Assembly (NCBI GenBank): GCA_041697335.1
Contig: JBGUGD010000007.1
Location: 32,001-96,000, forward strand
Direction: 5' to 3'
DNA: 64,000 bases
DNA from: Vampirovibrionaceae bacterium NZW_1234
Lineage (GTDB): Bacteria > Cyanobacteriota > Vampirovibrionia > Vampirovibrionales > JAGQHJ01
Shown: positions 20,871 through 59,227 of the stretch, piece after piece
Layout of the letters: every line of letters begins with the position of its first letter
How positions within the stretch are numbered: the stretch's first letter is position 1
Made by a program: the position numbers and the translations under genes
Notes under the pieces: generated by a model
Seen by the model: only the letters and a program-made list of their open reading frames with translations
Told to the model about the DNA's origin: nothing
The model's database searches: none

Positions 20871-22334
20871 ATGCGGATACAGTTGCGCCCGTATTCGATT
20901 CGAGGCATGTCGGGACAGAAACCCACAGTTTATGGTCCTCCGAACAACCGTAGCTCACTGACGCAATTTCAGGGTGAGTCTACACAGGAGGGGAATGAGC
21001 TTACACTGCTCCGACGCCATTTCTTAGCAGGTCTAATTGGCAGTGCCGTATTTGCTGCCTCCTTTTTTCCGAAACGCTCTACATCCAACGTTTCAGCCCA
21101 AGTTGTGTCACCGGAGCGAGTGCAGCTGTTAAAGCTGATTCAAGATCTGAAAATCCAAGAAAAAGCATTTCATTTTTTCGAGGATGCCCGAGATGAGACA
21201 AGCGGTCTGTATTTGGATCGGCTACCAAATCGACCTCTGAAGCCTGATGTCAAAAAAAACAACACGATTGCCAGTCTGGCAGCCACCGGCTATGGGCTTG
21301 CCCTGGATGTGATGAAAGCAAATCAGGGCTTTTTTAGTGCTCACCCGGGTGGTCCCAAGGCCATGGTGAGGCAGCGTCTTGAACAAGCGTTGGATACGGT
21401 TGAGAAGTTGAGTTTACCTCAAAATGGGCGGTTTTTGCCTCATTTTATCGATGTGCGCACACGGCAGAATCTGGCTGAGATTTCAACCGTAGATACCATG
21501 CTGTTCTATCTGGGGGCTTTGGCTGCTGGCCAGTATTGTGGGGGGAACACACTTCGTCGGGTTGAGCGGATGTTTCACCAGTTGGATTTTGAGATGATGC
21601 GAACACGGGCCAATGATCCGGTTTATCATAACAGCGATAATTTTACCCATGGCATCGCACCAGACAGACGTTTTATCCCTTATCATTGGGGCGGCCCTTA
21701 TTCAGAAGGGGTATTGCTGTTAAACCTGATGGCCTTGGCCTCGCCTCGAGTACCGGAAACGGTCTGGACAAAGGGTTGGGACCGGCGAAAGGCCTGGACT
21801 GTTGATAAACAATCTACTTTTACCAACACGCCTCTATTTACGTATTTTTACGCCCATGGGTTTCTTCCATTGAAAGGGTTCATGGATAGCCAGGGTGTGG
21901 ATTACTGGGAGGAAACTAAACGAGCCATCCAGATGCAAGTAGCCTATTGTCAATCGAAGAACTATGATCATGGCCTGTTTGGCCTATCAGCCTGTGATGC
22001 CCCGCCACCGCTGGGTTATCAGGGATATCACCCGGGTATTGATGATGGGACCATTGCGCCTCCTTCGATTTTAGCAAGTATTCCCTTTGCCGAGAAAGAA
22101 TCCTTGACAGCCTTAAAAAGGCTGAAGGAGTTAGATTTATTGAGTGAGCACTATGGTCCAGTAAATGCTTACAATGTTTTTACAGGGTGGAAAACAGGAG
22201 ATGCTCTAAGCATTGATGTAGGTAGTATGGCCTTGATGCTGGATGCTTATCAAGAAGGGACAATTCAAAAGCTGATGGGGCAAAATAAGATAGTTCAAGC
22301 CGCATTGCAACGAGCGGAATTCTTGCCCAAATAA
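20871..22334 (+). CDS. Glucoamylase-like (alpha/alpha)6 glycoside hydrolase, GH144/Glycoamylase-like, with N-terminal extension
   Basis: SGLYLDR, ASLAATGYGL, EISTVDT, YSEG, PLFTYFYAH, FGLSACD, DGTIAP, LSIDVG resemble beta-1,2-glucanase-like proteins; RRHFL plus hydrophobic helix near the N-terminus. Confidence 0.75.
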   Translation: MRIQLRPYSIRGMSGQKPTVYGPPNNRSSLTQFQGESTQEGNELTLLRRHFLAGLIGSAVFAASFFPKRSTSNVSAQVVSPERVQLLKLIQDLKIQEKAFHFFEDARDETSGLYLDRLPNRPLKPDVKKNNTIASLAATGYGLALDVMKANQGFFSAHPGGPKAMVRQRLEQALDTVEKLSLPQNGRFLPHFIDVRTRQNLAEISTVDTMLFYLGALAAGQYCGGNTLRRVERMFHQLDFEMMRTRANDPVYHNSDNFTHGIAPDRRFIPYHWGGPYSEGVLLLNLMALASPRVPETVWTKGWDRRKAWTVDKQSTFTNTPLFTYFYAHGFLPLKGFMDSQGVDYWEETKRAIQMQVAYCQSKNYDHGLFGLSACDAPPPLGYQGYHPGIDDGTIAPPSILASIPFAEKESLTALKRLKELDLLSEHYGPVNAYNVFTGWKTGDALSIDVGSMALMLDAYQEGTIQKLMGQNKIVQAALQRAEFLPK

Positions 22335-22450
22335 ATTTACATGCTGTTTGGATAGCTGAAGTTACCTCTTAATTGGCTTATAGCCATAACAGTTCGCTTG
22401 TCTTTGATTTAAGTGCCTGAATGTCTTGCCTGGTTTTGGTTATTGACTGA

Positions 22451-22767
22451 AAAGCTAAGGCCCGGTATTCATCTAATTGGGAAACCTATCGTCGTTCGCT
22501 TTTGGTTTCCTTTCAAGAGGTTGAGGATTCCTTAGTGGCATACAAGATGATCTGGACTCCTTACAGGAGACGGAGCGTCAACTGACGTCACCCAAGGATT
22601 GTATCGCGTTACTGTAAAGCCGCTATGAGCAGGGATTGATTTTTTATCCAGGAGTGTTGCCCGAGAAGCGACTCCTCTTAGCTCAAGAGCAACGCTACTA
22701 CGACTATAAGCGAGCGGTTCTCTCACATACGGTGAATCTTTATAAAGCTTTCGGTGGGGACCGGTAG
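22451..22767 (+). pseudogene. C-terminal fragment of a NodT/OprM (TolC-family) outer-membrane efflux protein
   Basis: Manual translation: KAKARYSSNWETYRRSLLVSFQEVEDSLVAY, frameshift near 22545, DDLDSLQETERQLTSPKDCIALL* (TAA 22615), SRYEQGLIFYPGVL...VNLYKAFGGDR*. Matches the NodT patterns AFxEVEDAL, RYxxGL and LYKALGGG. Confidence 0.8.
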
Positions 22768-58466: not shown

Positions 58467-58618
58467 ACCCGATGCCAATTTGCATGGCCAAAGCGTTTGC
58501 TCTGAACGACGAGCAAGGTTGCATCTGACCGTTACAATGCGTTGTAATCTCTTGTGTGTTGTGCTTTTTTTCGTCATATTTATACAAAATCAGAATGCTT
58601 ATTGCTCGGAGTTTTTGT

Positions 58619-59227
58619 ATGTCTTTCCCTCCTGTATCCTATACCCCGGTTCTCCCTCCTGTACGTTTTAAAGCCGCTCCGTCTCGTCCGACCACAGAGC
58701 TTATTCCCCAACCTCAGCCTCAACAAGCCCTTGGGCGTTTCGATTCTGAAAACCGACCTTTATTAAACCACTGGCTGCAAACCTTAACTCGGGAAGTAAA
58801 AGAATACAAGATCATTCCTGAGTCCTTGTGGAAAGACCCCGAGGTGCCTTTCGGCACCATGGTTAAACGAGTGTTAGCCAATGTCACCCAGCCCGGTAAT
58901 TACAAAAGTTGTGTGATGGTTCAGGTCGATACCCATCAAGACGGCTCGAAGTCATTTGTGATCACTGATCCTGGCATGTATACCAAGCATGTTTATCTCG
59001 CCGATCAGTACCGTCAGCATATTCGTTTTGACGCTCCGAAGAACAAACCTCCTCAAGCAATCGTGTTTCGCCAGGCTTGGTCCGGATCCACCTATGGTGT
59101 CAAAAAAGAATCTATTTTTGCGGATAAAGCAACCATGAAGCAAGTGGCGACCTTGGCCCGCCAACTCGAAGATCTGATTGAGCCGCCGACACGCTGGCAG
59201 CGTTTTACGCGCCTGTTTGGTTTCTAG
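58619..59227 (+). CDS. Hypothetical protein (Pro-rich leader ending RFKA)
   Basis: GGAG RBS, ATG 58619; no family recognised. Confidence 0.7.
   Translation: MSFPPVSYTPVLPPVRFKAAPSRPTTELIPQPQPQQALGRFDSENRPLLNHWLQTLTREVKEYKIIPESLWKDPEVPFGTMVKRVLANVTQPGNYKSCVMVQVDTHQDGSKSFVITDPGMYTKHVYLADQYRQHIRFDAPKNKPPQAIVFRQAWSGSTYGVKKESIFADKATMKQVATLARQLEDLIEPPTRWQRFTRLFGF

Follow-up and report, generated by a model that had tools for sequence, protein, structure and literature searches.

A short N-terminal leader ending in a phenylalanine-centred motif is shared by seven proteins encoded in a 64,000-nt stretch of Vampirovibrionaceae bacterium NZW_1234 (contig JBGUGD010000007.1, positions 32,001 to 96,000; hereafter the window), and it recurs throughout the genome. 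We confirmed that this leader is real and genome-wide, and our data support a signal that is specific to the lineage, acts at the protein level, differs from Sec signals and marks the N-termini of a co-regulated set. From sequence analysis, we propose that the Vampirovibrionia have a second type III secretion system derived from the flagellum (T3SS-2) and that the leader probably acts as export signal for its cargo.

We called 43 genes in the window with a gene caller blind to the motif. Seven of them have [RKQH]-F-x-[GSA] in residues 3–50, exactly the seven noted before, and all seven N-termini read as quoted in the initial annotation (Table 1). An earlier gene caller had clipped four of the seven leaders, which show atypical codon use, and the motif-blind caller hence took its place. 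The genome has a size of 3.70 Mb and a completeness of 94.75%, and our caller yielded 2,985 genes. RFG was the trimer most enriched at their N-termini, with 110 genes where internal windows (n = 2,335) predict 18. The loose pattern of the initial annotation occurred 323 times against a shuffled mean of 160, i.e., about twofold enriched, and the tighter [VPLIT]RF[GSAQK] 209 times against 30. An iterated leader model with the consensus S-[VPL]-R-F-[GSA]-[SAG] and a median Phe position of 25 yielded 266 members, or about one in 11 proteins, where about three were expected from internal segments. When the model was trained on half of the contigs, 99 of 1,397 and 96 of 1,588 held-out genes were found (shuffled means 7.0 and 6.0, respectively), in total 195 versus 13 expected under composition-preserving shuffles. 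None of the 110 core-like genes carried the leader. The motif is thus commoner in N-termini than internally and commoner than in core-like genes, opposite to what the initial annotation had named as refuting, and its observation that housekeeping genes lack the motif was borne out. Its presence in all seven window proteins stood for the most part: the leaders of the genes at 20871, 25104, 37918 and 58619 pass the model threshold, those at 25325 and 23343 are backed by a homologue (see below) and by a model-scored member with which the 23343 protein is 30% identical, respectively, and the one at 48023 is marginal.

Our own gene caller, the just twofold enrichment of the loose pattern and at least one false member (in a uracil-DNA glycosylase, the Phe falls within the domain) might suggest an artefact of start calls, composition or a DNA or RNA element. 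This explanation is largely refuted by the held-out counts and by the conservation of the motif in homologues of 38–60% identity, and we give it next to no weight. Because the Arg, Phe and Gly codons of the motif vary freely, with all synonymous codons used, the constraint lies at the protein level. In 174 of 266 members the next Met is more than 30 residues beyond the Phe, which speaks against true start codons downstream of the motif, an objection that the initial annotation had itself raised.

The leader, carried by mutually unrelated soluble proteins, is probably disordered, acid-poor and rich in Ser, Pro, Thr and Arg, with a Pro-rich stretch closed by [VPL]-R-F-[GSA]. Acid content rises about twofold, from 5.3% ahead of the motif to 11.5% past it (n = 138). 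The Phe lies before residue 19 in 102 of the 266 members and within the first 10 residues in 47, and residue 3 is Ile or Val in 76 of 266 members compared with 317 of 2,634 non-members. By a hydropathy rule, a Sec-like N-terminal helix was present in 0.8% of members versus 10.1%, in agreement with the earlier description of the leader as non-Sec. Polytopic proteins made up 0% versus 6.6%, no lipobox occurred among members and an RRxF-hydrophobic pattern of twin-arginine (Tat) type was found in 1.5%. Prepilin-type cleavage was ruled out as most members have no hydrophobic helix after the Phe; ten have a hydrophobic segment at most 60 residues past the motif. A downstream D-x-[VF] element is weakly enriched (D-x-F 26% versus 14%). 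None of 31 leader fragments matched a Pfam or NCBIfam model. Given the lack of Sec, Tat or lipoprotein signals and the occurrence of a T3SS in all motif-bearing families, the leader is most likely a candidate type III export signal.

To describe the cargo, 90 of the 266 members, taken from motif-dense regions, were scanned against Pfam, with 45 random neighbouring non-members as control. Matches were obtained for 25 of the 90 members and 33 of the 45 neighbours, and in 24 of these 25, all but the false member, the motif precedes the domain. The matched families include citrate synthase, nicotinate phosphoribosyltransferase (NAPRTase), an isochorismatase-family enzyme, guanylate kinase, 4-alpha-glucanotransferase, Lon, ClpB-like and other AAA proteins, a subtilase, a trypsin-like protease and flavin oxidases, and some cargo proteins exceed 1,000 residues. 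For 54 of the 266 members the genome holds a leaderless paralogue. Three alignments place the leader as an insertion ahead of housekeeping-type enzymes, i.e., citrate synthase, a malate/lactate-type dehydrogenase and phosphoribosyl pyrophosphate (PRPP) synthase. Members are rarely found in operons (5.7% versus 22.4%). One operon carries YeaH (DUF444), PrkA and ClpP-like genes with a leader on each, and the same trio with leaders occurs in a relative (L113). A class-wide search with the ClpP-like cargo protein matched ordinary ClpP everywhere and was uninformative. NAPRTase, the isochorismatase-family enzyme and a CinA-domain protein are all leader-bearing, which suggests that steps of NAD salvage are among the cargo.

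Such cytoplasm-type enzymes, and an operon with the leader on each of its PrkA, YeaH and ClpP-like genes, could also be explained by a tag that acts inside the cell and marks the proteins of one life stage (dormancy, feeding or differentiation) so that a protease adaptor or processing peptidase would recognize them or they would be sorted to an internal compartment or sibling cell. Some leader enzymes are single-copy, the twofold step in acid content at the motif resembles a cleavage boundary, and members have a promoter-like element in common (see below), all in line with this tag. However, distant homologues have Sec-type peptides in the leader's place, relatives carry the leader on 5'-nucleotidase and other hydrolase families, bacterial microcompartment (BMC) proteins had no match in the genome, and the cargo of more than 1,000 residues also argues against it. 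We therefore regard an in-cell tag as unlikely, though it deserves to be kept in mind. Mimicry of a mitochondrial or chloroplast transit peptide, by which injected enzymes would be steered to prey organelles, is compatible with export by T3SS-2. The S/T/R-rich, acid-poor make-up and cargo such as citrate synthase, dehydrogenases, Lon and 4-alpha-glucanotransferase would fit, and V-R-F-S presumably resembles the ends of presequences. Leaders with the Phe within the first 10 residues nevertheless fall short of presequence length, Pro is abundant in the leader, and gut-lineage relatives use S/N-F-[KT]-G without Arg, which makes this mimicry a long shot.

Homologues of two window proteins are in keeping with a role of the leader in export. 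Among nine homologues of the 20871 protein, the three closest keep R/T/K-F-[AS]-[AG] ahead of a hydrophobic segment, four have variants, one is apparently truncated and the most distant (P0009) starts with a Sec-type peptide. Of the four homologues of the 25325 protein, the closest (P0011, 38% identical) keeps PRFSGTYIL, and the other three (P0012–P0014) start with Sec-type peptides. These peptides were judged by eye. P0012–P0014 also share a long Ala/Pro-rich extension after the Sec-type peptide, perhaps the cargo tag of another lineage.

The genome contains two flagellar-type export sets. One, which includes flagellins, FliD, FlgI and MotA, is assigned to the flagellum. The other, T3SS-2, lies outside the window and is spread over four contigs (Table 1; slt, lytic transglycosylase; the FliG2 label is based on position alone), and we infer from paralogy and from retention in flagellin-less relatives that these loci form one machine. 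Close relatives of its FlhA (62–67% identical) mostly bear the names Gastranaerophilales, Melainabacteria or Vampirovibrio, which places the genome in the Vampirovibrionia. In a FastTree phylogeny of 101 rows (root chosen for display), the FlhA2 sequences group in a clade (support 100) separate from both flagellar FlhA and SctV, and the protein scored higher to FlhA than to HrcV. Matches to VirB4, TssC, the sheath of extracellular contractile injection systems (eCIS) or BMC proteins were not found in this 94.75% complete genome, and both of its secretins lie in pilus loci (type IV/Tad pilus). Because VirB4 is unmatched, a second T3SS is favoured over a type IV secretion system (T4SS). Correlation with flagellar, type III or type IV genes, proposed in the initial annotation, hence pointed to a second flagellum-derived set in the genome itself; across lineages, the correlation is imperfect.

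A 109-residue hairpin protein family without leader is present in at least four close copies (Table 1) and has relatives in Gastranaerophilales loci, including a 519-residue form sharing both ends. We consider it a candidate extracellular axial subunit of a needle or filament. Filament cap proteins FliD start with [ILV]-[SNQ]-F-x-G in five of six copies seen, which resembles the Gastranaerophilales form of the leader (see below), and the FliD N-terminus is a possible origin of the signal.

T3SS-2 could also merely replace Sec and deliver its cargo to the periplasm or cell surface without injection. The absence of a detectable second P/L ring or linked secretin would agree with this, as would the exchange with Sec peptides and the ten members with a hydrophobic segment close behind the motif. 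The periplasm, however, lacks the substrates of ATP-, NAD- and coenzyme A (CoA)-dependent enzymes, and the cargo includes Lon, ClpB-like proteins, citrate synthase and PRPP synthase; moreover, the hairpin family is a candidate extracellular axial subunit. Delivery short of injection thus appears quite improbable.

We analyzed 151 genomes of the class, grouped under working family labels f1–f11, of which f7 represents the Gastranaerophilales according to the FlhA tree. FlhA was found in 118 and flagellin in 66 genomes. FlhA without flagellin characterizes f7 (32 of 32, flagellin 0 of 32), f8 (9 of 9, 0 of 9) and f9 (12 of 12, 0 of 12), and both proteins are missing from f5 and f10. In each of four flagellin-less genomes tested, FliP was single and neither FlgI nor MotA was present; in two f7 genomes tested, with one FliP, FlgI, MotA, sheath, TssC and BMC were not matched. 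On the tree, one f8 and one f9 genome have the FlhA2 type. Strong VirB4 matches are confined to four of the 151 genomes. Divergent VirB4-like genes, mostly at least two per genome, occur in f5 (30 of 30 genomes) and f10 (2 of 2), e.g., G080:C1:4970759-4973182 and G015:C23:24426-26858, as a mirror image of the T3SS distribution.

The leader was searched in relatives with one pattern for all families, in 20-kb stretches rather than whole genomes, with shuffled N-termini as null. Together, f3, f4, f7 and named Gastranaerophilales had 21 leader genes in 669 versus 11.2 after shuffling, a count reached by 1 of 100 shuffles. Loci of f7 added after the pattern had been drafted had 8 in 168 versus a shuffled mean of 3.1, and none of 100 shuffles reached 8. 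The FlhA-less f5 and f10 (7 of 634 versus 11.0) and 68 loci of other phyla (17 of 1,134) were at background. The motif was seen in f1, f3, f4 and f7, all FlhA-positive; the f3 count is based on 105 genes, and 78 more genes near f2/f3 flagellar loci were without a convincing leader. In f7 the leader takes the form S/N-F-[KTS]-G, without Arg, on 5'-nucleotidase-type phosphoesterases, a hydrolase, an AAA protein and orphans. Hence all families in which we saw the leader have the machine, but we did not see the leader in all families with the machine.

About a third of the leader genes share the upstream motif t.GCAA-tttt...cTTGAgggg.tTT..t, mostly 60–90 nt ahead of the start. It occurs at 89 of 266 members versus 107 of 2,634 non-members, held up in cross-validation (44/133 versus 34/500 and 39/133 versus 23/500) and is also found in sampled f3 genomes. 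Two window genes, 25325 and 37918, have it. From its spacing and position we take this motif to be a putative promoter. Classical sigma-28 promoters of the TAAA-n15-GCCGATAA-type were rejected (0 of 237 members), as were sigma-54 promoters. The FliA-like sigma factor linked to flhB2 was found in 116 of the 151 genomes, with 54–72% identity in f2, f3, f4 and f7 and about 30–40% in f6, f8, f9 and f11; it was not found in f5 and f10. The range of the leader equals that of the close sigma orthologue, f2 excepted. A 44% identical paralogue of this sigma factor is encoded at C16:18690-19630, behind a small open reading frame preceded by this promoter-like element (score 14.8).

Export of the cargo by the ordinary flagellum (T3SS-1) or by some other route, to which T3SS-2 would be unrelated, is also conceivable. 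FliD copies beginning with F-x-G, the presence of T3SS-2 in families without motif enrichment and the type IV/Tad pilus secretins of the genome could be read in this way. Against this, f7 has the motif although none of its 32 genomes has flagellin, and FlgI, MotA or a second FliP were not found in the two tested. Secretin-type routes need a Sec or Tat step, and the cargo is without such signals. Only two of the 28 genes with a sigma-28 site of the classical, more loosely defined pattern are members. We judge export by T3SS-1 or another route to be very improbable.

Export by T3SS-2 could proceed as follows. The flhB2-linked sigma factor or its paralogue would switch on part of the cargo via the GCAA...TTGAGG...TTT element. 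The unfolded leader, with its small hydrophobic residue near the start and its Phe motif, would be read at the T3SS-2 gate directly or via a chaperone, and the cargo would cross T3SS-2 unfolded. It would end in a cytoplasm-like space, most simply that of a prey or host cell; such a destination is probable because much of the cargo needs ATP, NAD, CoA or PRPP. Direct docking of the Phe in the FlhA2 cleft is our guess. A more far-reaching scenario, which we put forward tentatively and consider rather doubtful, is that the Vampirovibrionia, independently of the known injectisomes, converted a duplicate flagellum into an injection machine. This machine would have a dedicated sigma factor and a needle made of hairpin proteins, and its Phe signal would be defined by sequence and need no chaperone. 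At least some 270 proteins of this organism, among them copies of enzymes of central metabolism, NAD salvage and ATP-dependent proteolysis, would be injected and the prey would be run as a feeding factory, and the gut Gastranaerophilales would keep the machine for a host.

Several observations weigh against export through T3SS-2. The leader-bearing NAPRTase and PrkA/YeaH enzymes are the sole copies found in the genome, which fits a role in the cell. A second FlgI or a T3SS-2-linked secretin was not found in the genome, leaving passage of the outer membrane unexplained, and the system's own rod and hook-like subunits are without the motif. The promoter-like element precedes just one of ten f7 leader genes and none of the T3SS-2 operons. 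Families f6, f8, f9 and f11 keep FlhA yet show no enrichment (9 of 524 versus 9.4), and f2, represented by one genome, had 0 of 90; in these small samples, the leader does not accompany T3SS-2 wherever it is present. The cross-lineage counts are small and the pooled excess in positive lineages is modest, comparison of the later-fetched f7 loci with f5 gave p = 0.08 in Fisher's test, and the pattern was tuned after earlier matches, a first generic one having given little, so that only loci L214–L253 were unseen.

Within the window, the initial annotation had assigned two glycoside hydrolases and a flavin oxidoreductase to leader-bearing genes. The oxidoreductase (25325) and one hydrolase, the glucoamylase-like 20871 protein, were corroborated by Pfam. 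The second hydrolase, the 48023 frame, matched no Pfam or NCBIfam family, and its label stays unconfirmed. Its in-frame stop is identical in a public-run contig across the stop, which possibly derives from the source sample, and the part 3' of the stop weakly matches a neighbouring protein (E = 0.002). The frame is a probable pseudogene of a leader-bearing enzyme. The 25104 gene has a hydrophobic segment after the motif and an alternative upstream ATG at 25179, both starts being possible. In protein atlas searches, its product had no match above 0.78, and all matches of the 58619 protein were under 0.9. A 2,789-residue protein without leader and without significant Pfam match is encoded at 38277-46646 on the minus strand. 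Rfam gave no match in the window. Public runs containing the stretch are labelled as hot-spring or microbial-mat metagenomes, and no RNA run was listed among them.

Table 1. Leader genes and promoter-like elements of the window (plain coordinates) and related loci elsewhere (contig or locus:coordinates).
Feature	Position	Strand	Remarks
Glucoamylase-like protein (PF10091)	20871..22334	+	leader 20871-20975, ends QFQG (20964-20975), hydrophobic segment after; model score 8.0
121-residue orphan, very short leader	23343..23708	+	KFNG at 23352-23363; below model threshold
416-residue orphan, hydrophobic segments	23854..25104	-	leader ends RFKS (25041-25030); score 11.5, taken from 25179 start
Promoter-like element GCAA-n-TTG-n-TTT	25250..25281	+	75 nt 5' of 25325; score 14.7
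FAD-dependent oxidoreductase-like protein	25325..27613	+	RFAG at 25343-25354; FAD-oxidoreductase Pfam matches; below model threshold
Promoter-like element	37851..37882	+	67 nt 5' of 37918; score 16.9
125-residue orphan	37918..38295	+	RFAG at 37951-37962; model score 12.0
Long frame with leader	48023..49669	+	RFSG at 48119-48130; in-frame TGA 48698-48700; marginal model score 2.5
202-residue orphan	58619..59227	+	RFKA at 58664-58675; model score 12.2
T3SS-2 flgF2-G2-B2-C2-slt-fliE2-F2-(G2)-H2-flhA2-fliI2	C32:8784-20950
T3SS-2 fliN-O-P-Q-R2	C8:66046-69951
T3SS-2 flhB2, then FliA-like sigma	C29:178733-180600
T3SS-2 fliJ, fliK-like, flgE/F/G-like	C30:50562-52826
FliD copies with F-x-G start	C5:100662-102452, C5:141547-143340		also L258, L260, L261
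YeaH/PrkA/ClpP-like operon	C5:195806-205961		leader on each
YeaH/PrkA/ClpP-like trio	L113:677-6010 (relative)		with leaders
NAPRTase, isochorismatase-family enzyme, CinA-domain protein	C37:127901-142021, C25:35135-36052		all leader-bearing
109-residue hairpin family	C10:10475-10804, C10:11173-11502, C8:98161-98493, C7:123788-124123		without leader

If export through T3SS-2 is correct, a three-residue motif would be recognized on hundreds of proteins, which could be tested by one substitution, and cargo lists could be read from the genomes of an almost uncultured class. As most relatives searched have no strong VirB4 match, it would also be an alternative, applicable across the class, to the view that Vampirovibrio preys by means of a plasmid T4SS. 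The partial flagellar genes known from gut Gastranaerophilales would gain a function and candidate substrates. If the cargo is indeed injected, a flagellum would have been converted into a delivery device independently once more. In the papers on the lineage that were searched, we found no earlier description of the leader or of the second export system; a prior mention elsewhere is possible.

The leader can be compared with known export signals. N-termini of injectisome effectors are disordered, Ser/Pro-rich and acid-poor and lie on scattered, co-regulated genes, and all this applies to the leader as well. Type III export signals, those of injectisomes included, are not known to have a fixed sequence motif, in contrast to the leader. 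Moreover, FlhA2 falls outside the SctV group, and T3SS-2 keeps FliE, FlgB/C/F/G, FliO and a FliA-like sigma factor; on these sequence grounds, T3SS-2 does not appear to be an injectisome by descent. It also differs from a motile flagellum, as flagellin, stator and P-ring do not accompany the T3SS-2 gate in f7, f8 and f9. Core genes of T4SS, type VI secretion system, eCIS and BMC were unmatched in the genome, and the leader thus does not appear to be a cargo signal of any of these.

Early flagellar subunits combine a hydrophobic N-terminal signal with a gate recognition motif at least 19 residues away (PMC8983047). The leader is likewise N-terminal, non-Sec and probably unstructured; a small hydrophobic residue close to its start is followed by a Phe-centred motif. 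However, it breaks the 19-residue rule in 102 of 266 members, has another consensus and is found on enzymes instead of axial subunits. Failing this spacing rule, it would not be a flagellar gate recognition motif. The flagellar chaperones FliS, FliT and FlgN dock in the cleft of the FlhA C-terminal domain by one conserved Tyr (PMC5932034). Both there and in the leader, one invariant aromatic residue is preceded by a hydrophobic one, but the Tyr lies on a chaperone helix and the Phe on the cargo. By sequence comparison, FlhA2 of our genome and of Gastranaerophilales keeps the D/E-P-T-aromatic segment of the cleft, whereas the f8 and f9 copies do not.

Vampirovibrio chlorellavorus drives spikes into Chlorella, which was ascribed to a T4SS (PMC4451040). 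Our proposal has in common with this model that hydrolytic enzymes would be delivered through a spike into prey; it differs in that our genome has no VirB4 match, with strong VirB4 in 4 of 151 class genomes versus FlhA in 118 of 151. Partial flagellar gene sets were described for Gastranaerophilales (PMC5877343), most of which retain flhB, fliI and flgG, postulated to serve secretion (10.64898/2026.04.24.720558). We likewise find flhB, fliI and flgG in flagellin-less gut relatives. In those descriptions, however, the genes are partial or retained flagellar ones, whereas here a paralogous second system stands beside a full flagellum, together with a candidate cargo signal.

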